A DNA stretch of 52,846 nt from a virus (taxonomy: Duplodnaviria > Caudoviricetes): positions 1 to 52,846 of the IMG/VR virus record IMGVR_UViG_3300032083_000594. One strand, given 5' to 3'. Under the pieces are notes generated by a model. That model was not told where the DNA came from. It made no database searches and saw nothing but the letters and a program-made list of their open reading frames with translations. This document shows, one piece after another, positions 22,370 to 52,846 of this stretch (positions are counted from its first letter, which is position 1; every line of letters starts with the position of its first letter). Both the position numbers and the translations under genes were made by a program.

Positions 22370-23161
22370 CTACGCCCCACCAACATCTTCTATATTAGGT
22401 GAAAAAGGATCTATTACCTCTATTTTTTTCTGTTCTGTTGTGGCTGTTAAATCTGGAAATTTAATTTCTCCTATTGAATTAAACTCATCAAAATATACTT
22501 CACCATCTTTAACAACTATGTATTTATAGTTATCTTCATATGGGTCATAAACAACTTTACCATCTAAATTTTTACGAATTTGTTTTTGATTGTTAGGATC
22601 TCTAATATCAAACGTTAAAACACCACCATATCTAGTTCCAGTAACCGCACTTCTTAACGTGTCTGCATTTTGTGTAGAAAATAAAGCTGCTCTTTCAGCG
22701 ACTTGTGGTGGTAAGTCGTCTTCAATGTATTGTTCTAGCATTACATTGTACAATGCATCATTTGTTTTATTTCCTGCTATTCTTTCATCAGAAGCTATTT
22801 TTGTTTTTAATCTGTCCATAGCAGATTCATCGCCAGCTATTCTTTCACCTCTTAAAAAATCTCTTTCACCTTGTTGTTCTCTAGCCCTTGCTTGACTTAC
22901 TTGTAATTGATTAAATGGATCTCTTGCAGCTGTTGCAGCTGTTTGAAATATATTACCTTGTGGTGGCGTTGCTAAAAGATTTAAACCAAAGCTAGTTAAA
23001 AAACCTGGTAAACCTTCTGTTTGAAACGTTGGCATTGATCCTTGTTGATAACCTGTTCTACCACCATTAGCCATTTTTTGTGGTTGATCTAGTCCTGATG
23101 TAATACCAGTACCAGCTGATCCACCTATTCTAAACATTGGTCTTTTTAAAGTTCTATTCAT
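22370..23161 (-). CDS. putative internal virion protein
   Basis: MANGGRTGY tag; GLNLLA amphipathic segment; position in the ejection cluster. Confidence 0.55.
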   Translation of the reverse strand: MNRTLKRPMFRIGGSAGTGITSGLDQPQKMANGGRTGYQQGSMPTFQTEGLPGFLTSFGLNLLATPPQGNIFQTAATAARDPFNQLQVSQARAREQQGERDFLRGERIAGDESAMDRLKTKIASDERIAGNKTNDALYNVMLEQYIEDDLPPQVAERAALFSTQNADTLRSAVTGTRYGGVLTFDIRDPNNQKQIRKNLDGKVVYDPYEDNYKYIVVKDGEVYFDEFNSIGEIKFPDLTATTEQKKIEVIDPFSPNIEDVGGA

Positions 23162-24312
23162 TATTTTCTTGGCACCCCTAGTAAAGAAAAATCCCTAGCT
23201 CCTTGTCCTAAAGCTCCATATACACCAGCAAGTGTTGTACCAACACCTAATGCAGTTTGTAATGGTGTAGGGTTAGGTATGTTTGTTGTTTGTGTTTGAC
23301 CAGGATATCCACCCATGATTCCTGTTACTTGACCAGCAAATCTATCTAACTGTTCTTGTGGTAAGAATGTTGCTTGTCTTGCTGCCTCTCTTGTTGCATC
23401 AAGTTGTGCTTGTTGTTGCGCCTGGTTCAGTGCGCCCAACTGACCTAAACGTGAAATATCTGTACCTGTTGCTTGTTGTTGTACTTGTCCAAGTTGTGCT
23501 TGTTGTCCAGCTAATCCAGATTGAAATGCACCTAAACCTTGTGTTGCTCCTGCAAACCCTGCTCTTTGTCCAGCAAGTCCTGATTGTGCTTGACTTATAC
23601 CAAATCTATTTGCAATATCTTGTTGTCTAGCTTGTTGCGCTTGACCAAAACCTTGTTGCAAGAGACCGGCTTGTAATAACGCTCGTTCTCTCGCAGCCCC
23701 TGTGCCAAACTCTGCGAGTTGCACTCCCGCTCGACCACTGCCGAGCGCACCCAAAGCTGCCTGCTGATCTCTGATAGACTGTTCTTGTATAGCCTTGTTC
23801 CGATCAAATTCTGAAAGTGTTGCATCAATTACTTGTGATTGATAAGGGGACATAAAATCTTGTACACCTTGTTGAAAAGATGTTGCTCCAGTTCCAATTC
23901 CGCCTAATGTTGTTCCAGCACCAGTTAGTTCTGTTCCTGCAGTTCCTAATTGTCCTAATGCTTGAGTTCCTAGACCAGCAGCTAATGTTGCTTGTGTTTG
24001 TGCTTGTTGTAAAAACGGTTGAAAAGATCCTACACCTTGTTGAGCTAGTGTTTGTGCTTGTGTTTGTAATGCATCTTGACCTGCTACTTGTGGTGCAAGT
24101 CCTGATAAACTTTGTTGTCTTGTTGTAAATTGTTGAGCAGCACTTTGTCTTGCTGCAAAATCACCTGCTGATTCACCAGGTTGTTGTGATATACCAGCAA
24201 GTCCTGTTGATACAACAGGTACACCTGATTGTGCTACTACTTGTTTTGCTAAATCTTGTCCTAGATCTTGAACAAATTGTGCAGGTAAAACTTGTGATTG
24301 TTGAATAGCCAT
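23161..24312 (-). CDS. Gln/Gly/Ala-rich DNA-injection (pilot) protein
   Basis: FMSPYQSQVI, ALGSGR, Q-rich coiled coil, C-terminal hydrophobic GVGTTLAGVYG. Confidence 0.6.
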   Translation of the reverse strand: MAIQQSQVLPAQFVQDLGQDLAKQVVAQSGVPVVSTGLAGISQQPGESAGDFAARQSAAQQFTTRQQSLSGLAPQVAGQDALQTQAQTLAQQGVGSFQPFLQQAQTQATLAAGLGTQALGQLGTAGTELTGAGTTLGGIGTGATSFQQGVQDFMSPYQSQVIDATLSEFDRNKAIQEQSIRDQQAALGALGSGRAGVQLAEFGTGAARERALLQAGLLQQGFGQAQQARQQDIANRFGISQAQSGLAGQRAGFAGATQGLGAFQSGLAGQQAQLGQVQQQATGTDISRLGQLGALNQAQQQAQLDATREAARQATFLPQEQLDRFAGQVTGIMGGYPGQTQTTNIPNPTPLQTALGVGTTLAGVYGALGQGARDFSLLGVPRK

Positions 24313-25712
24313 TATAATACTTCCTCTAGTCTTTGTGATGTTTGAAACATTTTACGTGCGCCTTCTAATCCTTGCGATTCCTCTGATACTTCACCTCCGG
24401 ATTCGAGGTTCTTCATCATGTTATACATAACTTCTGCACCTTTGTCTACATCTCCTTCACCTGCATTTCTAACAGCATCAGCTGTAAATACAAACTCATT
24501 CTTTGATAATCTTGCAGGTACGTCATCTGCTTTTTCCATACGTCCTATTGGAACGAATCCACCTTCAGCTCTTAAATCCATTTCTTTACCATCCATATCT
24601 AATAGTGGCATTGTTTTTTTTGCAACCGGTTCGTTCATAGATCCACCTTCAGCTTTAAATCTTCTTGCTAAATATTCATCAGGATTAGCTCTAATAGTTT
24701 CTATAGGTATTCCTGTTTCATCTGAAATTTGTTGTGCCTCTGCCTCTTGTTCAGGTGTTAAAGCACCTGCTATTGTTGATGCAAGAGTAATACCACCCGT
24801 TACAGTTGGCATTAAAGATCCACCACCTTTTGTTAAACCTAATGCAGGAAGTATACCTTCCTTAAAAGGAACAAATGCTTCACCCACTTTTGATCCTGCT
24901 TGACCAAGTAATGTTCCTCTTAAACCACTAAGTCCACCAAATTGTGTAGCTCCTAAATATCCTAATCCACCTAATAATGCAGTCCTACCTAATGGTGACT
25001 TTGCAATCTTCTTGACTGTTCTTCCAACTTTCTTAACAAGTTTACCTAAAAAATATTGTTGTCTTCCTGTTTCAAGGTCCATGATCCCACCTTCGTAAGG
25101 CATGCCACCTCCTGCTAGTCCTGCTCTACCACCTTCTGCTGCATACCTAAGTCTTAAACCTTCTAAACTTTCTAAATCTTCAGTATCTTGTTCTGGTTCT
25201 TGTGCCATGATGCTTGGTGCTTGAGCTACCATTGGTGATAAAATTATTTCTGGCCCTTCTGGATTACCGCCCACGTTATCATCTTCATCGTTATCATCCA
25301 TTAAAGTAACCGTACGTGTTTTTTTTGGTCCAAAAATACCTCTTGCTACTACTGTACCTAAAGTTGTTGGAATATCCAAAACCTTTGCTATTCCAAGACC
25401 GACTGTGTTTACAATTGGATTAAATTTATCAAGGAAGTTAAAAGAGCTAGATTTATAAGCATCAGGATTTTTTTCAAAATTTTTTTCAAAATCTTTTTGT
25501 CTGTCTGTTTGAATTCTACTTCTAGTTAAACCAGATGATGTCACAAAATCTCTTCCAGAGTCCCGTTGTGTTGCACCACCACCTGGAGGTCCACCATAAG
25601 CACCTGTACCTTTAGCTTCATCTCCACGATCTTGTGGACCACCAGATCTAAGTCCTATTCGTCCACCGTTTGCTAATAATTGTTTTGCGATTTGAGTTCT
25701 AGTTATGGCCAT
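24312..25712 (-). CDS. internal virion protein with a lambda gpH C-terminus-like domain
   Basis: Five AxGG-type motifs; DDVPARLSKNEFVFTADAV. Confidence 0.6.
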   Translation of the reverse strand: MAITRTQIAKQLLANGGRIGLRSGGPQDRGDEAKGTGAYGGPPGGGATQRDSGRDFVTSSGLTRSRIQTDRQKDFEKNFEKNPDAYKSSSFNFLDKFNPIVNTVGLGIAKVLDIPTTLGTVVARGIFGPKKTRTVTLMDDNDEDDNVGGNPEGPEIILSPMVAQAPSIMAQEPEQDTEDLESLEGLRLRYAAEGGRAGLAGGGMPYEGGIMDLETGRQQYFLGKLVKKVGRTVKKIAKSPLGRTALLGGLGYLGATQFGGLSGLRGTLLGQAGSKVGEAFVPFKEGILPALGLTKGGGSLMPTVTGGITLASTIAGALTPEQEAEAQQISDETGIPIETIRANPDEYLARRFKAEGGSMNEPVAKKTMPLLDMDGKEMDLRAEGGFVPIGRMEKADDVPARLSKNEFVFTADAVRNAGEGDVDKGAEVMYNMMKNLESGGEVSEESQGLEGARKMFQTSQRLEEVL

Positions 25713-41346: not shown

Positions 41347-41533
41347 TTTGCTCCTTGTCTTCTAGCAGGTTAGAGATTTCCTGTAGTGTTGCCTCGTAGG
41401 CATTTATTTGTCCTATAATATACTTGTAATTTTCCATATTGTCAACACCACCTGATGTGACTGATATAGATAAATTATCTAATCTATTTCTTAAAAATTT
41501 AAGAAGTCGATTTATTACGTTTTCTAATTGCAT
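41306..41533 (-). CDS. conserved hypothetical protein
   Basis: AAGGA RBS before ATG 41533; SG...MENYKYIIG. Confidence 0.7.
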   Translation of the reverse strand: MQLENVINRLLKFLRNRLDNLSISVTSGGVDNMENYKYIIGQINAYEATLQEISNLLEDKEQNEKGTVIDINTKK

Positions 41534-41783
41534 TTTTTCCTTTCTTAGCAATTGATGCAACTTGGCTTTTACCCATAACTTTAGCTCTTTGTTCCATCAC
41601 TGTTAGTATTTGTATTTTACGTGCAAAAGGTTTATTTACACGTTTTACTTTTGCAACAGTTGCTTTTGCATCTGCTGGTGTTGCAAATTTTATTTTAACT
41701 GTGTCTCTAGGATTTTCGTCTGTGTAGAGTCTTCTACCAGAACCTTTAGGCTTTTTTCCCGTTCCCTTTTTTGGATCCGCCAT
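41499..41783 (-). CDS. small basic conserved protein
   Basis: DPKKGTGKKPKGSGRRLYTDENP.DT. Confidence 0.7.
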   Translation of the reverse strand: MADPKKGTGKKPKGSGRRLYTDENPRDTVKIKFATPADAKATVAKVKRVNKPFARKIQILTVMEQRAKVMGKSQVASIAKKGKNAIRKRNKSTS

Positions 41784-41883
41784 TGATAGCTCCTTTCAAC
41801 ATTTTAGCTTGTTTAGTATGAGCTTTAACTGCTTTGCCCAATCCTTTAATCACTTTTTTAATTGCATTTTTTTTCTTTAACAT
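41746..41883 (-). CDS. small basic protein (45 aa, not in track)
   Basis: MLKKKNAIKKVIKGLGKAVKAHTKQAKMLKGAINGGSKKGNGKKA. Confidence 0.55.
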   Translation of the reverse strand: MLKKKNAIKKVIKGLGKAVKAHTKQAKMLKGAINGGSKKGNGKKA

Positions 41884-42170
41884 TTCCATCTTCTTCTTGC
41901 CTGACGGATACGTGAATTAGGATCGTTTCTTGTTTTAGCTGACGCTCGTTTTAATTGTCCAAGCGATCTTGCGCAGTATGATTTTCTACGTTTAGCAGCT
42001 TTTGATCCTGGTTTTACTTTTCCAGTCACGGCTGTTTTTAGTTTAGAGCCAGGATTTAATCTTCTGTAGGCTTTGACCCCGGCTTGTGTCATACCTGCTC
42101 CAGACTTTGTAGATCTAAAGTTCTTTTTGTTTCTTGCTGGCATAGTGCCTTTTGAATACTGTCTTCTCAT
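41877..42170 (-). CDS. small basic protein (DUF6321-like)
   Basis: GMTQAGVKAYRRLNPGSKL, RRKSYCARS, ARRRWKC. Confidence 0.7.
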   Translation of the reverse strand: MRRQYSKGTMPARNKKNFRSTKSGAGMTQAGVKAYRRLNPGSKLKTAVTGKVKPGSKAAKRRKSYCARSLGQLKRASAKTRNDPNSRIRQARRRWKC

Positions 42171-42445
42171 TATGCGGTCTTCTTTTTCTTAGCAAATGTT
42201 GCAGCTCTACTTGGAGTAGGACCTGTGTTTGCTTTCGCTTGTTTTCTTCTTACGGCACCCGCACGCTGCCCTTTGGACATCGCTCTTGCTTTTGCAATAG
42301 GCACGCATTTTGGATAATTTTTTCTTTTTTCGCCACCACTTCTTCCACACTTCGGGTATGAGCCATCTGATTTTTTGTTTGCAATATCGACCCAATTGTC
42401 CTTGACCCATTGTCTTAAACCACCTTTTGAAAAATGCGTTCGCAT
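42170..42445 (-). CDS. small basic Cys-containing protein
   Basis: GGLRQW....WVDI, CGRS, YPKCVP. Confidence 0.7.
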   Translation of the reverse strand: MRTHFSKGGLRQWVKDNWVDIANKKSDGSYPKCGRSGGEKRKNYPKCVPIAKARAMSKGQRAGAVRRKQAKANTGPTPSRAATFAKKKKTA

Positions 42446-42834
42446 TACGAATTCTTTCCGTAAGCTCTTCCTTTGCCTTTAGTAGCTAACTTACAACCTT
42501 TAGATCCAGATTTAAATCCTGCTCTTCCACCTGATTTGTAATGTCTTGCTATAGATCTTTTAGTACGAGTTAATTGTTTATCATCTGTTGCAGCATCTAC
42601 AATATTTTTTAAACCTTTTTTAGTTATTTTTTTACCATCTCCAATATTTTCAGAACTTAAAGCAGCATCTAATTGGTCAAAAGCAATTTCACCTTTAGGT
42701 CCTTTTTTATCAAAAACAGGTTTAATAATTTTTAAGGCTTCTTTTTCCGTAATTTTATCTACTCCATAACGTTCACTATCTTTTTTATTTTTTTCTTTTC
42801 TAGCTGTTTTTGTTGATGGGTATTCAAATGCCAT
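42445..42834 (-). CDS. basic hypothetical protein with GG tag
   Basis: YKSGGRAGFKSG near the C-terminus; TAATG-coupled. Confidence 0.7.
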   Translation of the reverse strand: MAFEYPSTKTARKEKNKKDSERYGVDKITEKEALKIIKPVFDKKGPKGEIAFDQLDAALSSENIGDGKKITKKGLKNIVDAATDDKQLTRTKRSIARHYKSGGRAGFKSGSKGCKLATKGKGRAYGKNS

Positions 42835-43418
42835 TATACTTGTCCTCCTTTTAAATATTTCATTCTAGTCATATCTATCATTCCACCACCCATTTTTTTA
42901 GTTTGATTTCTAAGTTTTTCATTTTTAAATTTTAAATCTGGTCTTGGACCTTTATTCATTTTTAAATTTTCATTTTTAAATTTTTTACTAATATTTTTTG
43001 CTGTTCCAACAGCTTGTTTAACTCCTGTTTTAACAAATTCTTTTATTTTATCAGGAACACGTTTATCTTTATAACGTCCTTGAAATTTAGTTCCAAGTTT
43101 ATAATCTTTAGATTCAGAACTAATATTTTTTGCTGTTCCAACAGCTTGTTTAACTCCTGTTTTAACAAATTCTTTTATTTTATCAGGAACACTTTTATCT
43201 TTATAACGTCCTTGAAATTTAGTTCCAAGTCTATAATTTTCAGATCCAGAGCTGTATCCTATTCGTCCACCCATAGCTTTTTTATTACGATTTTTTTTAC
43301 CACCGGGTGTAATTTTACCTGAACATACTCCAGATGCATACATATTAGCATATGCTGATGGATACACTTTGAATTTTCGTTTCGCTGCTGCTTTTCCTTT
43401 TGGACACAATTTTGCCAT
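42834..43418 (-). CDS. basic hypothetical protein with internal 44-aa duplication
   Basis: KRKFKVYPSAYAN N-terminal domain, KAMGGRIGY tag, duplicated LGTKFQGRY...KNIS. Confidence 0.7.
   Translation of the reverse strand: MAKLCPKGKAAAKRKFKVYPSAYANMYASGVCSGKITPGGKKNRNKKAMGGRIGYSSGSENYRLGTKFQGRYKDKSVPDKIKEFVKTGVKQAVGTAKNISSESKDYKLGTKFQGRYKDKRVPDKIKEFVKTGVKQAVGTAKNISKKFKNENLKMNKGPRPDLKFKNEKLRNQTKKMGGGMIDMTRMKYLKGGQV
42987..43237. repeat. 132-nt-period tandem duplication
   Basis: 42987-43098 vs 43119-43230 identical except for one base. Confidence 0.9.
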
Positions 43419-43861
43419 TATCTATTCCTTAATTTTTTAAAATCAGCACCATCAATCTTATTTGGATTACCCGCTAATTTTGCTATCTTCATTTGTTTTG
43501 GTGATAAGTTTTTCTTTTTAGGACCAAAAGTTTCTTTTATTTTTTCAACACTTGTTTTTGGTTTTGGTGTACCAAATCTTCTACCAATTCTGCCCCCATC
43601 AGCTTTTTTATCATATATGTCGGCTATCTTTTTATTAATTTTAGGTTGATTAGATTTTTTTCTTAATTCAATTTTTTGTTCATCAGATACCTTATAACCA
43701 CTATGTATCTCACTTCTTTTTGTAGTGATGTCATCTTGAACTTTTCTTTTCTTTGCTAAATTTTTTCCCGGTTTGATAGATGTAATAGTAGTTGGAACTT
43801 TACTTTTGTTTCCTTTTAATATTTTTCCTACAGTTTTAAATACATTAAAATATCCAGACAT
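43418..43861 (-). CDS. basic hypothetical protein with GG tag
   Basis: KADGGRIG; C-terminal LSPKQMKIAKLAG....IDGADFKKLR. Confidence 0.7.
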   Translation of the reverse strand: MSGYFNVFKTVGKILKGNKSKVPTTITSIKPGKNLAKKRKVQDDITTKRSEIHSGYKVSDEQKIELRKKSNQPKINKKIADIYDKKADGGRIGRRFGTPKPKTSVEKIKETFGPKKKNLSPKQMKIAKLAGNPNKIDGADFKKLRNR

Positions 43862-44451: not shown

Positions 44452-46911
44452 TTAATTATCCTCTACCATAACTTGTGCTTGTTGTACACCAGACTTTGCA
44501 AGACTGACTCCAGCTCGTAATTTTGCTAAATCTTCGTTCTGATCCATCTTATCTTCTGCAATTTCTTGTGCTTGCATCAATTTTGCTCTGTTTAAATCTT
44601 GAGTTGCCTCGTCATTTTGTTTTTTACGCTCATTTTCCATCGCTCGAAGGTCAACTTCACGTGATTTTAACTTTAATAGAGGGTCGTTATCGAATTGAGA
44701 TGTAATTTGTTTCTCTTCTTTCATGTATTCTTCTGTCATCTCAGCAATTAAAACAGCTTTTCTTGATTCTATTTGATTTGTTAGTGCTTGAACCTGTGCT
44801 TGTATTTGTGGATTAGTTGCTGCTTGTTGTTGCATCATCATCATTTGTTGCATTTGTTCTCTAAACTCTAATTGTACCTGTTCTTGTGCCATTAAACTAA
44901 TATGTTCTAGAATATTTTTCTGTATCGCTGCCATAACTGCAGGATTATTTCTAACAATATTAGTTGACATAAAATTTAAGTGAGCTGTAATGTGTGCTCT
45001 GTGATCTTGACCAGGAAATGCCTGAAAAGGTTTGCCACCTAAAGCATTAATGTGTTCTAAACTTGGGTCTATCGGTGCTGTTGGTGCCGGTGGTGGTAAA
45101 ACTGCATCAACATCTTTTACACCTATTGCATTATACATGTTTCTATAGATTTGATACATGTTATGTAATTGTGGATTTGATGTTGCAATCTGCAACTGTG
45201 TTTGTGCTAAAGTAATTCTTTGCGACATTGAAAAAATATTAGGGTCCGCTACAGGAATTACATCAACTCTATTATCAAAGTCAGCTTGTTTTATATTTCT
45301 TGCTCCACCTACAACATCATATGGATATTCTGGTGGTAAATATTGTGAAACAATTTTACCAAGTAATCTAAATTCATTTTTCATTGCCGCATAACATCTT
45401 TTGTGAATTGCAGACATAACTCTTGAACCACGTTCTAGTAATGCAATCGTTGTTCCAACAGCAGCACCTTGATTACCATCACCCACTTGCATATCAGCAA
45501 TACTCGCGAATCTCTGACCAGCTTGTACTACAATACCAAGTAAGTTTAATAAAGTCTGTGATGGTTCTTTGTAAGGTAGTGGGAAGAATGCATCTCTTAA
45601 ATTACCACCTGGTGCATCAACATCTTTAAATTCACCTGGTTGTATTGGAGCTGCTTCATCTCTAACTCTAACACCTCTTTGTTTAAATCCTGCTGGCAGG
45701 TTTGATAACGTACCTGCATCTAATAATTGACGGAGAGCCGCCGTTGCCGTACGACTCAATCCGCCAATCATGTGAATGAGTCCAAAGCCATAAAATCCTA
45801 GTCCTGGCAGAAACTTGAAGTGGACAAAATATTGGATTTTATTTTTCTTTAGATCATCGGGCGCATAGTTCCTTCTAATAGAAAGAACTTTTCTATTGCC
45901 TTCTTCTACAGTTACTATGTAGGGCAATTTTATTCCAGTTGGCTCACCTTGAGCATCAACTTCTTCAAAACCTTCTAAGTCTAAATTTACATGACACTCT
46001 AACAAAGTATATACAGGTTCGTTCTTACCTGTTTTTTTTGTACCATCTAACTCACGTTCTTTTTTGTCGAGTTCATTATTTGTATCTGTTCCTGGTGGAC
46101 CCAATTCTACATCTCTGTAGAAACCACTGACTTGTTGTTTTCTTAATTCATTTTCAGAAATTTTTACTTTGTGAATAACTGCCTCCGCATCGTCTAATGA
46201 GGTAGCCGTATACGGGACAATTAATTCATCTGCAGGCACAAACTTTGATACTGCTCGTCCCATTGGAACATCGTAGTATATTTTTTTAAAAGTTGATCCT
46301 GCTAATGGTAAATGAAATAACATAGAATCGAATTCTGATTCATACTCTTTCATTTGATCCATAATTAAGTAATTCATAAAATCTTTAACACGATTTGCCT
46401 GCTGTTCTGTTGCAGTATTTTTAATTCCTACAACTTGTGTTCTAACTGGTCCATCTGATGGTAATAATTCTTTGTAAGCTTGTGCTTGAAATTGTGTAAC
46501 AGCTTCTGCAAGAACTGGGTGAGTTGCACCACTAGCTCCTTGAAATGGTTCTGTTCTGTTTTCGTATTTAAAACCTAAAAGATCTAAACCTGTAATGTAT
46601 GATTGCTCCCATTCTTTTCTTGAAGTTTTGTAATCCATGTAGTTTTGAGTCATCTCGTTGCCGATTGGCTCTAAAACGTCATCAGGTAAAAGTTCTGCTA
46701 AGTTGTCAAAGTGTGATTCTGTTCCTGGTACATTGATTGCACCTGGTTCATAATCTAAAGTTACACCACCATCTTCTTCTGGTATAACCTCAATTGGTTT
46801 TCTTAAATCTTGTTCTGTTTGTTCCTGAACAGCTATTTCTTGTAATTCCTCCTCTGAAGGAATTTCTTCTTTGTTTCTAGTGTTCGGGAGTCCTTTATCT
46901 ATATCTGCCAT
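44452..46911 (-). CDS. portal protein
   Basis: 819 aa; HPVLAEAV, LPLAGSTFKK, PYIVT, FLPGLGFYGFG, LLDAGTLSN; position between terminase and head genes. Confidence 0.85.
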   Translation of the reverse strand: MADIDKGLPNTRNKEEIPSEEELQEIAVQEQTEQDLRKPIEVIPEEDGGVTLDYEPGAINVPGTESHFDNLAELLPDDVLEPIGNEMTQNYMDYKTSRKEWEQSYITGLDLLGFKYENRTEPFQGASGATHPVLAEAVTQFQAQAYKELLPSDGPVRTQVVGIKNTATEQQANRVKDFMNYLIMDQMKEYESEFDSMLFHLPLAGSTFKKIYYDVPMGRAVSKFVPADELIVPYTATSLDDAEAVIHKVKISENELRKQQVSGFYRDVELGPPGTDTNNELDKKERELDGTKKTGKNEPVYTLLECHVNLDLEGFEEVDAQGEPTGIKLPYIVTVEEGNRKVLSIRRNYAPDDLKKNKIQYFVHFKFLPGLGFYGFGLIHMIGGLSRTATAALRQLLDAGTLSNLPAGFKQRGVRVRDEAAPIQPGEFKDVDAPGGNLRDAFFPLPYKEPSQTLLNLLGIVVQAGQRFASIADMQVGDGNQGAAVGTTIALLERGSRVMSAIHKRCYAAMKNEFRLLGKIVSQYLPPEYPYDVVGGARNIKQADFDNRVDVIPVADPNIFSMSQRITLAQTQLQIATSNPQLHNMYQIYRNMYNAIGVKDVDAVLPPPAPTAPIDPSLEHINALGGKPFQAFPGQDHRAHITAHLNFMSTNIVRNNPAVMAAIQKNILEHISLMAQEQVQLEFREQMQQMMMMQQQAATNPQIQAQVQALTNQIESRKAVLIAEMTEEYMKEEKQITSQFDNDPLLKLKSREVDLRAMENERKKQNDEATQDLNRAKLMQAQEIAEDKMDQNEDLAKLRAGVSLAKSGVQQAQVMVEDN

Positions 46912-46920
46912 TTAATACTC

Positions 46921-49572
46921 CTAGTAGTTTTTAACACGGTTTTTAAGGGATAGCAACCCTTGTGAATTTGGCCCTCTTACTGGTGCTGGACCTGATGATA
47001 CACCAGCTTCTTTTGCTATTCCCCCACCTGCTGCCGCAAAACCTCTTAAACCGCTACCTATATCAGAAATGTCAATATCAAATGGATTAATAACTTGTCC
47101 TTGTGTATTTACATTTGTTCGACCAACTATTTCATTTTCCATATCACCTATAACGTTTTGTGGTTTTTCCATAGGTGGTTTATTTATCGGCTCACCCACA
47201 GTTCCTGACGCTCCGTAAACTGATTCTGGATTAAATCGTTGTGCTAACTCTGATAGAGAAGCATTTCTTAATGAATCTCTATAAGCTAATATATCTTTTG
47301 CTGACACTTTTGAACCTTGTGCTCTAATTCTTTGTGCTAAATTTATTGCATCTGCAGTCGACATAGTTATAAAATCTTTTTCATCTCCAAATGCTGGGAG
47401 TATTTTTTCATTTAATTGTTTTTGTGTTTGTTCAGACATTCCTAAAGTTTCGATATCACTATCAGGTTCTACATCTCTAAATTTAGATTTTAGTTTGGTA
47501 AAAAACGATCCCGAACTTCTAGCATCATCAACTTCGTCCTGCATTCTATCTGCATAAATTCTTTCAGCCTCTGGCATTTTAAACTTATTGTTTAAATCAT
47601 CAGTTGCCTGTTTTAATCGAGCATCCACATTTTTTACATTTTGACTTAAATCACTAATATAATCAAAATCACCTCCCCCTGATAAATTTTCAAGGTTTGC
47701 TTTTTGATCTTCTAAACTTTGTATTTTTGTTAGTTGATTTTTGTAATCAAGAGATTTACCAATGATACCTGCAACCTCTGGTCCAAAGAATCTACCTGCT
47801 TCTAACATCTCGGCTTTTTTAGTTTGATTACCTGGTAACAAATAATCAGACGCTCTTAAAAAAGCTTCGTTAAGAGTATCACCCATACCCATTCTAATTA
47901 CAGAATCAGCAGCAACATATAATGCTTCAGGTATGACACCAAACTTTATAACATTTCTACCCAAACTTGCTGCTCTATTTGCAAATGCTGCAAAGTTTTT
48001 AGCTTGTGCGGGGGTTACATTTTTCATTCCAGAGTTAATATTTTTTATACCTCCTTGATAACAAACATCTAGACTAGGGAGGCTTCCTTCTTGAAAACCT
48101 GCTCGTCCTCCTTGTGAGTTAAATCCCCTACTACATCTTGGATCTTTACTTAGTGTTGCTATGAGTTTTTTGTCAACTCCTGATATTTCTAATTTTTGTC
48201 CTCTAGGAAAAATTTCTTTTAAAAGTTTTTTTCCTTCGTCTGTTTTTTTTAATTTTTCTAAATTTTTTTTTGCAAGATTTTGTTCTCTTAAATTTTGTGT
48301 TAATTCTTTTAATAAACCCTCTTGTGTTTTTTTAGCTATGTTAGTTGCACCAAAATTAAATTTTTTAGTTGATCCTTTTCCTATATTAACATTAAGAGTT
48401 TTAGCAAGGTTTTCTATTTGTTTTATTTTTTTAATATCTTTTACATCGGCTAGTAAAGCTTTATCATAAGCTTTACTTAAACTTTCTTTAAAACCTCTAT
48501 TATATCCTCTACTAATAGGTGTTACATACAAAAGTTTTTCTGGAGATACATTCGATCCTTTTAAAAAAGCTTTTGATAAAGGGTGATCTAAATCTAATTT
48601 TAAATCACCAGGTAGAGTATTAAGAAATTTATTATACTCTGATAATCCTTGTAAAGCTGCTACATATTTTTTAGGGTCTTTTCCTCTTCCAAAAGCATCC
48701 ATAATTAATGTTCCAATATTTTCTGACTGTACTTTTCTTAAACCTTTTATATTTGAAAAGTTATCTAAGAAATTATCTGTAGTATTAAAGTCATCAGGTA
48801 ACCATGATTTTAAGGGTTCTTTAGATAAATTTTCTTTACTTATTGCAACATTTTGTGCGTACACATTATTTAATAATTTACTTGATTGTTTTACAATTTC
48901 TTTTTCGGTTTTATTAAATTTTTTAGCCATAGATTTTACGGTGGCATTAGGGTTTTTTAATATTTCATCAAATAATTTTTTTTGTGTTATTATTTTTTTT
49001 AATGCTAGTTCTGATTGTTTTTTTGATTTACCCGTTTTTGTAAACTCAAGAGCTTCTTTATAAGTATCAATCATATACCTACGATTAACTCCTAATTTTT
49101 TAGCTAATGCATTTTGTGCCTTAACATCTTTACCAAGAATAATATTATTAAATAATGTAGTATCTTGAGTGTTTAAAATTCCACCAGCGTCTACAGCTCC
49201 TTTTGCCATTCTAGCTGTTCTTGTTTTAACTTTTAATTTTTTATAATCTTGTTCTATAAAAGCTTTACCTATTTTATCAAACTTTGCTTTTATTTTTGCA
49301 ACATTTCCTGCTTGTTGTGCAGCTTTAATTGCTTTATCACTTCTATACCCCTGCCTCGTGCCACCAAAACCTGGTTGCACTAACATACCACCGCCTGCTT
49401 TCTGTTGTCGTTCACGTCTTAGAAATGCGTTGACTGCTTCTCGCTGTTCAACTTCTGGTTTAATTGGTGGGATAGGTGCTTTGCTTGCAGGAAAGACATT
49501 AGGAAGTTCTGGTTGTGTTTTCTTAGCTCGTGTTAAATATTTATATATCTCTCTTAATTTATATGGGTTCAT
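46921..49572 (-). CDS. large hypothetical protein with GG tags and a possible HNH-like motif
   Basis: 883 aa; KAGGG, NSQGGRAGF and AAAGGG motifs; DLDHPL...YNRGFK. Confidence 0.7.
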   Translation of the reverse strand: MNPYKLREIYKYLTRAKKTQPELPNVFPASKAPIPPIKPEVEQREAVNAFLRRERQQKAGGGMLVQPGFGGTRQGYRSDKAIKAAQQAGNVAKIKAKFDKIGKAFIEQDYKKLKVKTRTARMAKGAVDAGGILNTQDTTLFNNIILGKDVKAQNALAKKLGVNRRYMIDTYKEALEFTKTGKSKKQSELALKKIITQKKLFDEILKNPNATVKSMAKKFNKTEKEIVKQSSKLLNNVYAQNVAISKENLSKEPLKSWLPDDFNTTDNFLDNFSNIKGLRKVQSENIGTLIMDAFGRGKDPKKYVAALQGLSEYNKFLNTLPGDLKLDLDHPLSKAFLKGSNVSPEKLLYVTPISRGYNRGFKESLSKAYDKALLADVKDIKKIKQIENLAKTLNVNIGKGSTKKFNFGATNIAKKTQEGLLKELTQNLREQNLAKKNLEKLKKTDEGKKLLKEIFPRGQKLEISGVDKKLIATLSKDPRCSRGFNSQGGRAGFQEGSLPSLDVCYQGGIKNINSGMKNVTPAQAKNFAAFANRAASLGRNVIKFGVIPEALYVAADSVIRMGMGDTLNEAFLRASDYLLPGNQTKKAEMLEAGRFFGPEVAGIIGKSLDYKNQLTKIQSLEDQKANLENLSGGGDFDYISDLSQNVKNVDARLKQATDDLNNKFKMPEAERIYADRMQDEVDDARSSGSFFTKLKSKFRDVEPDSDIETLGMSEQTQKQLNEKILPAFGDEKDFITMSTADAINLAQRIRAQGSKVSAKDILAYRDSLRNASLSELAQRFNPESVYGASGTVGEPINKPPMEKPQNVIGDMENEIVGRTNVNTQGQVINPFDIDISDIGSGLRGFAAAGGGIAKEAGVSSGPAPVRGPNSQGLLSLKNRVKNY

Positions 49573-51704
49573 TATTCTCCTAACATTCTAGCGATACCAC
49601 CTGATGCAAAGGCATCATCTGGCACATCATAATCAGACTCATTTACCTCGCCCTGTCTTCTGACAACTGCATCTGATTGAGCCTCAGGATCTGTCGTTAG
49701 TCTTCTAGCCTTATCTTTTCTTTTTTTGTTTTGAATAATCTCTCTAATCGTAGGTCCTTTGCCTGTCGCATATTCTTTTAGTTTAGATACATCAGAATCT
49801 AGATCTCTGATACTTGAACCACCGATCTCGTCGACCTCTATCTCATAATCATCTGGTCCATATCTTCTGCCAACAGGACCTGCCTCTGCTGTAGAAAACT
49901 CTGCTGCAGGGTTTGGTGCTCCTTCATCAGGTAATGGTTTTTTATATTCCATTTGTACTGTGTCTTCAAAAACATTATCAGGACTATCATACTCAACTCT
50001 TACAGCACCATCGTCCACGTCCTCTGTAACTCGGACCACGGAACCATCATTAAGTGTTTTCTGATGAATAGATTGTCTTTCCCCTGTTGCAAATTTTTTA
50101 GTAACGTCATCACCTTCAATAATAACTTTATTAACTAATGCATCAAACCATTCTGGTTTACCAGCAACGTTATCTGTTTTAATAATTGGAACGCTCTTAA
50201 TACCTTTTGCAGTTTTAATTGGTTTTAAAAATTTACCAACAATAGGTATTGATGCAAGACCACCTAATATTTTTAAGAAACTTCTTCTGCTCATGCCAGA
50301 CCCATTTTTAAATTGTTTTCTAAAATTAAAACCAATACCAGTATCATCTCGTCCAAAACCTTTGTTGATACCAAAACTTAACTCACCACCGCCAATATTT
50401 TTTTGTCCACCAATCTTTGCTCTATCTAAGTCAAACATTAACATCATGTCTTTTGATAAAGGAACTTTAGCAGGATCAACGTTTATCATTCTTTTAACTA
50501 TTTCTTTTAAAGCTTCTTCAGGATCATTTGTTTCAAAGGTAGGTCCCATCGATTCTTGTTTTTTATCAAAATCATATTTAATACTTGGTGCTCCTGTGCC
50601 ATTTGCATAACCAATACGTCCGCCGTCTGCTCTCTTTTCACCAAACATTCTTTCCGTATAGGCTTCAATTGTTTTATCTTTAAGTTCTGGATTTTTTTTA
50701 TAGAAAGGATCTGCATTTAATTCTTGTATAAATTCTTTTAAGTTTTGTTCTTTCTGCTCTTCGTTCATAGCTTCTAATTTTTTTCTTAGTTGATTATTTA
50801 TTAAGGCTCCAGTTGTTGCAGGAATACCAACTTCTGCAAGAGGTAGGTCCATAAACTTACCTGTCTCATTTGCTTTTAATGTTTTATCTTTAATATTTTT
50901 TAAATAATCTTTACCTGCTTGATATGGACTTTTTTTATTAAAAAAATTTAATAAAGTTTGAATACCTTTTTTACCTGTACCTAATTTATATCCTGCACGA
51001 CCGCCTGTTGCTAAGTCTTCTGGTGGATCAAATTTCTGTTTAGTTAAACCTTGATAGGCTTCATCGTAAAGTTCCATTTGATCTATTTCATCTAAATCAT
51101 AAAACTCTTTACCAAATCTTTTTTCTGCTAAATCATCTGCAACAAGTTGTGCATCGTATTTTCTATCTCCTGCAAATCCTGGTGAAGCATTGTCGATTGC
51201 TTCTTCAATCATTTTTCTATTTTTTATTCTTTGAACAGCTGCTTTGTTATCTTTTTCCATACGAGCTAATACTTCTGCTTCTCTTTGTTTAAGAGTCTTA
51301 GGTCCTTGTTCAGTTGTCTTCACTAAATCTGAATATGGATTATCTGTTTTCATTAATCCTTCTTTTAAAGTCTGTTCGTTTATTTCTTTACCACCCATAA
51401 TACCTTTTGATGGATTTATTTTTTTACCCGTCATATCAAAGACTTCACCTTTTCGATCAAACTTGCTACCCCCTAGCATATCACCAAAACGTTGTTGAAA
51501 CGCTTGGTCCTCAGCTTGTTTAACATAAGACAATATTTGATTTAATTCTTTTTCACTTGTGATCGCATTTGGATCAATGCCTAAATTTTTTAATCTATTC
51601 TCTAAAGCATTCGCAGAAAATTCTACTGCTTTGTTATTAGCAATCGCTCCCTGTTTTTTAAAAAGGGCTTTTGCTATAAAATTTCTGATAACTGTTACTG
51701 CCAT
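49572..51704 (-). CDS. large modular hypothetical protein with GG tags and an internal Tat-like motif
   Basis: 710 aa; LATGGRAGY, RADGGRIGY, FKNGSGMSRRSFLK, C-terminal FASGGIARMLGE. Confidence 0.7.
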   Translation of the reverse strand: MAVTVIRNFIAKALFKKQGAIANNKAVEFSANALENRLKNLGIDPNAITSEKELNQILSYVKQAEDQAFQQRFGDMLGGSKFDRKGEVFDMTGKKINPSKGIMGGKEINEQTLKEGLMKTDNPYSDLVKTTEQGPKTLKQREAEVLARMEKDNKAAVQRIKNRKMIEEAIDNASPGFAGDRKYDAQLVADDLAEKRFGKEFYDLDEIDQMELYDEAYQGLTKQKFDPPEDLATGGRAGYKLGTGKKGIQTLLNFFNKKSPYQAGKDYLKNIKDKTLKANETGKFMDLPLAEVGIPATTGALINNQLRKKLEAMNEEQKEQNLKEFIQELNADPFYKKNPELKDKTIEAYTERMFGEKRADGGRIGYANGTGAPSIKYDFDKKQESMGPTFETNDPEEALKEIVKRMINVDPAKVPLSKDMMLMFDLDRAKIGGQKNIGGGELSFGINKGFGRDDTGIGFNFRKQFKNGSGMSRRSFLKILGGLASIPIVGKFLKPIKTAKGIKSVPIIKTDNVAGKPEWFDALVNKVIIEGDDVTKKFATGERQSIHQKTLNDGSVVRVTEDVDDGAVRVEYDSPDNVFEDTVQMEYKKPLPDEGAPNPAAEFSTAEAGPVGRRYGPDDYEIEVDEIGGSSIRDLDSDVSKLKEYATGKGPTIREIIQNKKRKDKARRLTTDPEAQSDAVVRRQGEVNESDYDVPDDAFASGGIARMLGE

Positions 51705-51956: not shown

Positions 51957-52846
51957 TTAATAATAACTCCTTTTTTGTTTTTCAACTTTTTCGTCGATGT
52001 AATCTTCAGGATGATCTATTAATCCACCTTGTCTGAATCGCATGATTGCTTGTGTGGTTGAGTCCACAAGATCGTCATGATCACCATAAGGAAACGCAGC
52101 ACATTCTTCAATAACGTCATCTGCGAATTTCTGCTCAGGTGCCCATATCATACCAGATTCAAATAAAGGTGCAACAGCATTTACACGTGCATGCTTATCA
52201 TTTCCACGTGAAGGTGTGAAGTTGACAACAGGTATATCCATTTGCCTAAGCTCGTACGTTAAGGGTAGGCCAGATGCTTTTGCTTCAACAATAACAGATT
52301 CTGGCATCCAATACTTATATTGATCTAATGCTAAACGTCGAAGTTCTGGAAACTCATATCGTCCTTTGATTGCATCGAGTAATATTAAATTAGCACCTGA
52401 GTCTTCATCAGGATAAAAAATACCCCAAGTAGTGATTGCACTATAATCAGCTGTCTCCTTTTTTAAAAATGCAGTATCATAAGATTGTATCACATGATGT
52501 AGTTGTGGAATATCATTACCTGTATAAGTTCGCCACCACTCACGTTTTAGTATAGCTCCTTCTTCTGCGGTTGGATTCTGCATCCACTGCGCGTTCCATT
52601 TGCCCGTGGGCAGTGTTGCTTGGACCTTCTCTAACTCATCTAACTTCCAATATTCTGGCCATACAGGTTTTTGGTCCTTTGATCCGTGGTCCATGATTGC
52701 TGGAAATTCGACCACGTGCCACTGATCAGCTTTCGCTTCTTTTTGATTCTGTATCAGTTTTCCTGTTAAATCTTTATTACTCCATCTAGTCATAACCAGC
52801 ACGATCTTACCACCTGGTTGTAAACGCTGACGTGGACCTGACGTGT
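51957..52846 (-). CDS. terL: terminase large subunit (partial; 5' end outside the window)
   Basis: RLQPGG.I..VMTRW coupling motif, QSYDTA, ADYSA, VEAKASG, DK.AR, HDDLVDS RNase H-like nuclease domain; frame open to the window edge. Confidence 0.92.
   Translation of the reverse strand, partial: TSGPRQRLQPGGKIVLVMTRWSNKDLTGKLIQNQKEAKADQWHVVEFPAIMDHGSKDQKPVWPEYWKLDELEKVQATLPTGKWNAQWMQNPTAEEGAILKREWWRTYTGNDIPQLHHVIQSYDTAFLKKETADYSAITTWGIFYPDEDSGANLILLDAIKGRYEFPELRRLALDQYKYWMPESVIVEAKASGLPLTYELRQMDIPVVNFTPSRGNDKHARVNAVAPLFESGMIWAPEQKFADDVIEECAAFPYGDHDDLVDSTTQAIMRFRQGGLIDHPEDYIDEKVEKQKRSYY

Follow-up and report, generated by a model that had tools for sequence, protein, structure and literature searches.

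Why does a large phage protein carry, about 470 residues into its chain, a segment that matches the consensus of twin-arginine translocation (Tat) signals? The segment lies in a viral contig of 52,846 bases (IMG/VR record IMGVR_UViG_3300032083_000594), analysed at its full length and called the window in what follows. It belongs to an open reading frame (ORF) of 710 amino acids (aa) on the minus strand, containing ...FRKQFKNGSGMSRRSFLKILGGLASIPIVGKFLKPIKTAKGIK..., where the span 50230-50312 corresponds to residues 465-492 and positions 50292-50294, read on the complementary strand, give the ATG of M471. The answer favoured here, and held tentatively, is that the segment is a putative leader, recognised by the Tat machinery and left uncleaved, of the C-terminal cassette of a late pelagiphage protein.

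A twin-arginine segment inside the 710-aa protein

The initial annotation had described an internal M-S-R-R-S-F-L-K motif within the 710-aa ORF, followed by a short h-region without an AxA signal-peptidase site and by an acidic part of about 240 aa. The sequence and the coordinates of the motif were confirmed. The h-region-like stretch counts 12 residues, with a Kyte-Doolittle hydropathy of 1.96 over these 12 residues and of 1.48 over 19 residues, below that of a usual transmembrane helix. No AxA site is found between G490 and V505 of the window protein. From M471 onward the protein has 240 aa, and residues 505-710 are indeed acidic (isoelectric point, pI, of 4.55; net charge -16), next to a segment 461-504 with a net charge of +11 and a pI of 12.0. 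A 12-residue h-region stands at the short end of the range of Tat leaders, and an AxA site is dispensable, signal-anchors being devoid of it.

The pattern [ST]RRxFLK is matched once in the 29,401 residues of the stop-to-stop frames of at least 60 aa of the window, for an expectation from composition of 0.003. One such match could arise by chance when many windows are scanned. Conservation of the motif is therefore decisive.

Conservation of the leader across the family

A word-index search returned 1,333 proteins at an expectation value (E) of at most 0.001 among 8,000 scored candidates, 120 of which were listed. M-x-RR-x-F-[LM]-K is present in 120/120 homologues among the matches listed, and M471, R473, R474, F476, L477 and K478 are invariant both in the 27 sequences of one alignment (A1) and in the 88 of another (A6). 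An exhaustive search with residues 471-710 gave 807 cluster representatives (50% identity) at E <= 0.001. Among the 150 listed, 137 domain copies preceded by 60 residues or more were retained; rows lacking the domain hallmark were excluded, as were those whose domain lay too close to a truncated N-terminus. The strict pattern [RK]R-x-hydrophobic-hydrophobic-[KRQ], followed by a hydrophobic stretch, occurs in 129 of these 137 copies (117 with RR and 12 with KR). The others are five RRxFL[A/E/G] variants, one copy with GK in place of RR and two garbled-looking sequences, so that RR or KR with a hydrophobic stretch is retained in 134/137 domain copies among the representatives listed. The conservation of the arginine pair in homologues, which the initial annotation had proposed to examine, is thus clear: RR or KR, Phe and Lys are kept down to about 35-45% identity.

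The hydrophobic stretch behaves differently from the motif. It has 12 residues, with a Lys on either side, in 121 of 129 representatives, and its sequence varies by subfamily (ILGGLASIPIVG, LMGGVGAGIGAA, VAAGLATIPIVG) whereas its character and its length stay. The segment therefore evolves as leaders do. In addition, TAT_signal is the sole recurrent Pfam family in these proteins, with matches at E <= 0.1 in 29/82 members of alignment A3 and 11/37 members of alignment A4, i.e. 40/119, the best at 1.8e-5. At the sequence level, these data show that the motif is not due to chance and that a predicted Tat-type leader is maintained by selection.

Internal position of the signal

Since Tat signals normally start a protein, a first possibility to consider is that translation begins internally at M471, giving a separate 240-aa Tat precursor, as the initial annotation had envisaged. 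In its favour, among 66 distinct near sequences, 64 encode the Met at position -2 by ATG and one has TTG, and this Met is part of the pattern present in 120/120 homologues among the matches listed. However, M471 has no Shine-Dalgarno-like motif, as compared with 27 of 41 window genes that have one, the synonymous diversity beside the ATG is normal (0.59-0.61, not lowered), and no Met is found within 8 residues before RR in 43/129 representatives. The domain was never found as a separate ORF at viral or metagenome loci. Two apparent stand-alone forms starting with M-x-RR were rejected as artefacts: the sole one that could have argued for an internal start, P0254 (263 aa), arises from gene calling, because the 96%-identical loci L083 and L084 are open over 317-359 codons upstream, and P0160 (168 aa) is carried by a contig of 616 bases. 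An internal start at M471 as a general mechanism is thus unlikely on sequence grounds, and a separate precursor made in this way has only a very slight probability.

The reading frame leads to the same view. The motif is visible in 79 of 80 viral loci, the last one ending before it. All 57 viral loci with an upstream stop inside the contig have a frame open over 144-701 codons before RR, and the remaining 22 run to the contig end. Among metagenome loci, motif and domain are seen in 47/60, and all 37 that are decidable have a frame open over 130-495 codons upstream. Because the upstream frame is open in all decidable loci, an N-terminus at the Tat-like leader would be obtainable only by cleavage.

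A metatranscriptome run, available as contigs only, shows a drop of summed contig depth at 50291/50292. DNA runs show the same drop, and contigs of a metatranscriptome reveal neither starts nor levels. Two contigs of this run depart from the window sequence at 50288, just before the RR codons, into other upstream sequence. Furthermore, the domain and the N-terminal region are common to the metagenome contigs of many relatives, the middle cassettes to fewer. The depth drop and the switch at 50288 would fit a cassette boundary common to many relatives, and not a transcript start.

The junction motif and the C-terminal motif

In the family, the leader always follows a junction motif, either GGRxG[FYL] or GG..LGE. 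Most homologues have GGRxG[FYL]-K-[DE]-G directly before M-x-RR, and FNFRKQFKNGSG of the window is a degenerate variant common to many near relatives. The 'degenerate GG-type site' of the initial annotation therefore holds as a degenerate copy of a real family motif, but nothing ties it to double-glycine (C39-type) processing: the GG motif is internal and repeated instead of N-terminal, and no C39 peptidase or ATP-binding cassette (ABC) exporter partner is found among the 47 window proteins.

GGRxG[FYL] occurs in 8 copies in the 14,902 residues of the long minus-strand frames of the window, as compared with a mean of 0.053 and a maximum of 2 in 2,000 shuffles. At least six proteins carry it: the 710-aa protein (twice), the 883-aa product of the next gene, two small basic proteins (42445-42834 and 42834-43418) and the products of 22370-23161 and 24312-25712 (the latter twice), which belong to a putative ejection cluster beside phrog_4287 'DNA ejection protein'. 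Written more fully as A-x-GGR-x-G-[FYL]-x-x-G, this short motif has among its carriers small, very basic proteins encoded between portal and GroES, and the loci listed for it include 43418-43861 on the minus strand. It may be a packaging, docking or processing tag. We know of no description of this motif. Within the family, the junction motif separates a limited set of recurring cassettes, present or absent according to the homologue.

These observations lead to a second possibility, in which the segment would be a docking or linker element internal to the phage, contacting the capsid interior, the portal, a scaffold or a chaperone, and its Tat likeness would be coincidental. The segment would then be a specialised version of what follows other junction motifs. 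Its constant position behind a motif so enriched and so widely shared would be accounted for, some other junctions do precede basic amphipathic stretches (GLGKRFLELLK, FMERRKFLKTMVG), and the conserved extreme C-terminus described below hints at docking peptides as a recurrent device in this family. However, the RR motif follows 122 of 124 distinct domain junctions and [RK][RK]xF[LMI] only 4 of the 207 other GGRxG[FYL] junctions, which also rules out RRxFLK as a generic helix standing behind every junction. Moreover, the sequence of the h-region differs between subfamilies, arguing against a fixed protein interface, and the segment is unpacked against the domain in the AlphaFold2 model (see below). 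Such a docking element is considered unlikely.

The protein ends on a second form of the motif. G702, G703, A705, L708, G709 and E710 are invariant in the 88 sequences of A6, and GG[ILV]A[RG][ML]LGE is also internal in distant relatives, where it is followed by PTY or R, with the RR motif 10-25 residues later. The 710-aa and 883-aa ORFs overlap, stop codon on start codon, in TAATG (49572-49576), as at most related loci, and the AGGAG ribosome-binding site of the 883-aa ORF sits in the last codons (L-G-E) of the 710-aa ORF. It was therefore considered whether LGE is merely this ribosome-binding site. This is partly true, since TTAGGAGAA/G is found in 47/82 sequences, but the Gly codon is GGA in 49/82 and a different one in 33/82, and internal copies mostly use GGT. 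Because of this variation of the Gly codon and of the internal GGT, the C-terminal motif is selected at the protein level. An internal motif equal to a natural C-terminus fits equally a cut after Glu and a docking peptide able to act at the end or inside a chain. Cleavage at the junction motif is plausible.

Finally, the junction and C-terminal motifs resemble stretches of GroES: TKGGLHLAE in the GroES of this phage (40942-41346), KGGLILGQE in that of HTVC027P and TAGGIIIPD in that of a Pelagibacteraceae, the loci compared with that of the window being L001 14104-14571 and L182 1480-1790. In GroES, this stretch is the mobile loop, through which GroEL is bound. Provided that the likeness is real, recruitment of the host chaperonin by the motif could be envisaged.

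The acidic domain behind the leader

AlphaFold2, applied to residues 451-710 with 120 aligned relatives, gave a model with a mean predicted local distance difference test score (pLDDT) of 80.5 and a predicted template modelling score (pTM) of 0.69. Residues from about 451 to 500 have a pLDDT of 47-57 with a single short helix (473-483), and the leader segment is not packed against the domain. From about 506 to 680 the model is confident and consists of one helix, six strands and three C-terminal helices, the final 25 residues being uncertain. The arrangement proposed by the initial annotation, with a leader segment ahead of an acidic domain, is matched by this model, in which the domain folds separately: a disordered basic stretch before such a domain is the layout of a signal peptide and its passenger.

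The fold of the domain has no clear counterpart among solved structures. Foldseek against the PDB returned nothing at E <= 0.001 (best E 0.01), the VIA wide fold search a best Z of 4.9, and a PDB profile search a best E of 0.027, in the variable part. Matches in BFVD were only uncharacterised viral proteins, and those in the ESM Atlas only viral hypothetical clusters. This lack of a match does not prove a new fold.

A sequence related to the domain occurs in a cellular context. In a Pelagibacteraceae single-cell genome (L144 586-2490), a protein of 634 aa, which combines a Sec-type N-terminal signal with a DUF2167 domain and whose gene adjoins that of a PrsW-family protease, has a 19-residue patch (AGKPEWFDQLVNKVITEGD) matching the most conserved helix of the phage domain. 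This patch may derive from a captured phage fragment or represent a binding epitope common to the two proteins.

Phage type, host Tat machinery and cultured relatives

The portal protein of the window shares 67.8% identity with its counterpart in Pelagibacter phage HTVC027P and 52.2% with that of HTVC023P. Judged from these identities, the contig is an HTVC023P-type pelagiphage. Because its portal resembles those of Pelagibacter phages, we infer a host of the Pelagibacter lineage. HTVC023P-type phages are a very abundant phage type in the ocean, and their SAR11 host is the most abundant marine bacterium. The isolation paper presents the group as lytic podoviruses of SAR11 (10.1101/2019.12.14.876532).

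Such hosts have the machinery. In a Pelagibacteraceae single-cell genome with a locus related to the domain, tatA, tatB and tatC are adjacent, and TatC is found in 31 of 41 sampled Pelagibacteraceae genomes, many of which are incomplete. An earlier paper reports tatC in the Rickettsiales genomes examined and names Pelagibacter ubique as a member of that order (PMC3827258). In five Pelagibacteraceae genomes, native leaders score 18-22.5 bits with PF10518, one of them reading ISRRSFLK. They are N-terminal, with 11-19 residues between the last stop and RR, and detectable native Tat leaders are few, with 0-4 matches at E <= 1 per genome.

Among cultured relatives, HTVC027P, which grows on HTCC1062, encodes two large proteins in this position. 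One of them, gp42, has KR in place of RR, in GGRVGY-ADGPDDPS-KR-KFIK-LGAGLMSLPIIGKYLK, followed by a shorter version of the domain, and hhalign relates it to the domain family with a probability of 97.3% (E 1.8e-11). HTVC027P gp41, gp42 and the portal gp43 belong to the 'Late' transcriptome class (PMC12753301, Table S3). The searched part of the isolation paper of HTVC023P and HTVC027P contains no virion proteomics (10.1101/2019.12.14.876532). Phage 023Pt_psg01 has large proteins with the junction motif, without the RR module. Because HTVC023P and 023Pt_psg01 do without it, the RR module is an accessory cassette and not a core virion part.

A third possibility would be a membrane-active element, independent of Tat, of a virion-internal protein that is ejected. 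The basic amphipathic RR...K-x12-K...K segment would insert into the host inner membrane, or perturb it, at genome delivery, a role played by hydrophobic parts in podovirus ejection proteins, and the likeness to Tat signals would be convergent. The gene indeed lies inside the structural module, between terminase and portal, and the junction motif is also found in the putative ejection cluster mentioned above. The high positive charge of segment 461-504, the uncharged stretch fixed at 12 residues between two Lys, and a hydrophobicity that is the highest of the protein yet below that of a usual transmembrane helix would be in keeping with such a role. However, a generic stretch leaves unexplained both the near-invariant R-R-x-F-[LM]-K and the matching of a curated Tat model to 40/119 members. 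Furthermore, the virion location is putative, and the lack of the large protein in HTVC023P means that it is not a core part of delivery. This possibility is given a low probability, equal to that of the docking element.

Possible modes of action of the leader

Recognition by the Tat machinery is ranked first because conservation falls on the positions of the Tat consensus, the hydrophobic part varies in the manner of leaders, a curated model matches many members and the host has tatABC. In the proposed mechanism, the leader of an acidic cassette of roughly 200 aa would consist of an n-region with the twin arginine, an h-region of 12 residues rich in Gly and Ala, and a basic c-region, and the TatBC receptor of the host would recognise it. 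Two routes may be envisaged. In the first, the cassette would be freed by a cut at the junction motif. In the second, the leader would insert as a loop without any cut, leaving the N-terminal part of the protein in the cytoplasm, on the model of the internal signals of dual Sec/Tat proteins (PMC5449189, PMC3471239). By either route, translocation would bring the folded domain through the inner membrane. Since the leader has no AxA site, it would persist as a membrane anchor, as in Rieske proteins, with the domain on the periplasmic face. The step could belong to the late phase of infection, in the cell that produces the phage, or follow delivery by the virion into a newly infected cell.

Several observations weigh against such a leader. 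In the window protein, Pfam TAT_signal (PF10518) reaches 14.5 bits (E 0.035) on residues 471-484, for a cut-off of 22.7, and NCBIfam TIGR01409 gives no match; TAT_signal does not match HTVC027P gp42 either. The signal is never N-terminal, with at least 130 open codons upstream in all 94 decidable loci, and no phage protease for a cut at the junction is found among the 47 window proteins. The h-region is short, and a structural role could instead account for its constant length between two Lys. Residues 505-710 have neither Cys nor any sign of a cofactor, so that the usual reason for using Tat is missing. Lastly, HTVC023P has only a 201-aa protein at this place, showing that the large proteins are not universal in the group.

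A related proposal keeps Tat recognition and dispenses with delivery of the domain. The uncleavable leader, produced in large amounts late in infection, would act as a decoy or plug that occupies or jams the few Tat translocons of a streamlined host. Insertion of the Tat substrates of the host would be blocked, or the membrane potential leaked, for takeover or for the timing of lysis. The evidence for recognition by TatC is the same as above, and the absence of an AxA site, the low number of native leaders per genome and the late class of the HTVC027P homologue would be compatible with it. Yet conservation is higher in the domain, with its many invariant residues, than in the leader, which points to a function of the domain itself. 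A plug of this kind therefore seems considerably less likely than either of the Tat-independent alternatives.

Comparison with known systems

The closest analogues of the leader are bacterial Tat signals and uncleaved signal-anchors such as that of the Rieske iron-sulfur (Fe-S) protein (PF10518, PF10399). They share [ST]-R-R-x-F-L-K, an h-region of weak hydrophobicity that is rich in Gly and Ala, and the basic residues that follow it. As in Rieske-type signal-anchors, a self-folding domain stands behind a leader without a signal-peptidase site, and scores within the family reach the range of native Pelagibacteraceae leaders. The phage segment differs in that it is internal, with 470 hydrophilic residues ahead, is phage-encoded, has a cargo without sign of a cofactor and an h-region of only 12 residues.

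Internal Tat signals are known in dual Sec/Tat-targeted membrane proteins, as described for the actinobacterial Rieske QcrA/Sco2149 family (Keller et al. 2012 via PMC3471239; Tooke et al. 2017, PMC5449189). There, a twin-arginine motif in mid-chain sends a folded C-terminal domain across the membrane and the leader is retained; for the phage protein, export is a prediction. In those proteins, transmembrane helices inserted by Sec precede the signal, whereas a soluble array of cassettes does so here: upstream of the leader, the best 19-residue Kyte-Doolittle value is 1.17, residues 1-460 have a grand average of hydropathy (GRAVY) of -0.76, and no Sec-type transmembrane helix is present.

The T4 prohead protease cuts according to the rule L/I-x-E. 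The motif ending on L-G-E, at the C-terminus here and internal in relatives, may be likened to such sites. Phage proteins that are processed, packaged in the capsid and injected are described for T4, whose internal proteins bear a capsid targeting sequence that its prohead protease cuts, and for SPN3US, with its ejection proteins (PMC9026906, PMC9958956, PMC7411985). These processed and injected proteins resemble the present one by their late genes in the structural module and by a short motif common to several phage proteins. They differ in that no prohead protease is recognised among the 47 window proteins, packaging and cutting being putative here, and in that the capsid protein of the window has no evident delta domain, with a separate coiled-coil scaffold-like protein present. 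A full-text literature search found no description of a Tat leader in systems of the T4/SPN3US type, and such a search on Tat signals in phage virion or ejection proteins returned only an unrelated paper on a defence system and its preprint.

For the polyvalent proteins of phages and conjugative elements, Iyer et al. (2017, PMC5512222) propose entry together with the DNA, followed by cleavage into units with separate sites of action in the cell. Like them, the 710-aa protein is large, modular, fast-shuffling and encoded beside virion genes. What defines polyvalent proteins is the presence, in one polypeptide, of several recognisable domains of an enzymatic, DNA-binding or conflict-related kind, frequently along with a zincin-like peptidase, whereas the cassettes of the 710-aa protein match no known domain. 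The paper contains no occurrence of signal peptides, twin-arginine or periplasm (PMC5512222). A weak match to LPD22 (E 4.9e-4, below cut-off) is found in another window protein, that encoded by 24312-25712.

Gene neighbourhood

The 710-aa ORF is organised as a conserved N-terminal region, variable cassettes, the junction motif, the Tat-like leader, the conserved C-terminal domain and GGIARMLGE (Table 1). Apart from the weak TAT_signal match, no Pfam or PHROG family or domain was recognised in it. In minus-strand order, the genes are those of the large terminase, a 93-aa ORF, the 710-aa and 883-aa ORFs and an SU10-type portal. Beyond the portal come small basic proteins, GroES, a coiled-coil protein, the major capsid protein and tail genes. 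Except for an M15 endolysin, no peptidase family is recognised among the 47 proteins of the window, whose contig ends inside the terminase gene and in which several ORFs are without family. Between the proteins with the GGR motif and GroES, a row of small, extremely basic Lys/Arg-rich ORFs (47-97 aa) occupies 41499-42445. They may be DNA-condensing internal head proteins.

Table 1. Features of the window around the 710-aa ORF (positions in the window)
Feature	Position	Strand	Remarks
Large terminase subunit, C-terminal part	51957..52844	-	Ends at contig edge; Pfam Terminase_6C; phrog_38; upstream neighbour
710-aa cassette-built ORF of the late module	49572..51704	-	Homologues and alignments
Conserved N-terminal region, residues 1-110	51375..51704	-	Amphipathic start, then VFDMTGKKI...IMGGK; alignments A1, A6
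Junction motif copy GGRAGY, residues 234-239	50988..51005	-	
Junction motif copy GGRIGY, residues 361-366	50607..50624	-	
Degenerate junction motif copy GIGFNFRKQFKNGSG, residues 456-470	50295..50339	-	Directly before M471
n-region M471-S-R-R-S-F-L-K478	50271..50294	-	Exact match to Tat consensus [ST]-R-R-x-F-L-K; invariant in A1, A6
h-region-like stretch I479-G490 (ILGGLASIPIVG)	50235..50270	-	12 uncharged residues; most hydrophobic window of the protein
c-region-like stretch K491-K503 (KFLKPIKTAKGIK)	50196..50234	-	Lys-rich, 5 Lys in 13 residues; no AxA
Conserved acidic alpha/beta domain, residues about 505-680	49665..50192	-	Hallmark GKPEWFDxLVNKVIxEGDDVTK; AlphaFold2, pLDDT >90 over most
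C-terminal motif ASGGIARMLGE, then stop	49575..49607	-	
883-aa ORF, downstream neighbour	46921..49572	-	Translationally coupled; one GGRAGF motif; no Tat-like segment
Portal protein (SU10-type)	44452..46911	-	phrog_1216; PF23899

The gene is present in seawater and viral metagenomes from 9 studies. Queried with the whole protein, tblastn found nothing at 1e-5 in 50,697 phage records, and the C-terminal part alone gave HTVC027P as sole match (E 2e-3) in the same records.

Two other loci deserve mention. In HTVC023P, gp30 (L184 7288-7893, 201 aa) starts with MSKKSRRRNRALGVIAGLMGAKALGMFGTKG, an Arg-rich stretch followed by a Gly/Ala-rich hydrophobic stretch like the h-region of the second subfamily, and ends with a GGGMARM motif; Pfam TAT_signal does not match it. 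A 3.3-kb scaffold binned with SAR86 (L143 211-2741) carries a closely related terminase and, immediately behind it, a 354-aa member of the family with junction motif, RR leader and domain. The conserved N-terminal region is also found in this member, beside TerL. As the scaffold is probably a phage fragment, its binning with SAR86 is no evidence for a host.

Concluding remarks

Tat signals are regarded as N-terminal addresses of cellular proteins, and a strictly conserved internal Tat signal in a late protein of a lytic phage would be new. It may be imagined that the cassette has a built-in address for the Tat translocon of the host, so that the phage would use or block the export route of folded proteins, and that a phage domain would thereby be displayed on the periplasmic face, either of the producing cell or, after delivery from the capsid, of the newly infected one. 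Taken jointly, these two propositions are possible but rather doubtful. An internal signal of this kind would imply either a hidden processing step in a phage group without known protease, or the recognition by Tat of a deeply internal signal in a soluble protein.

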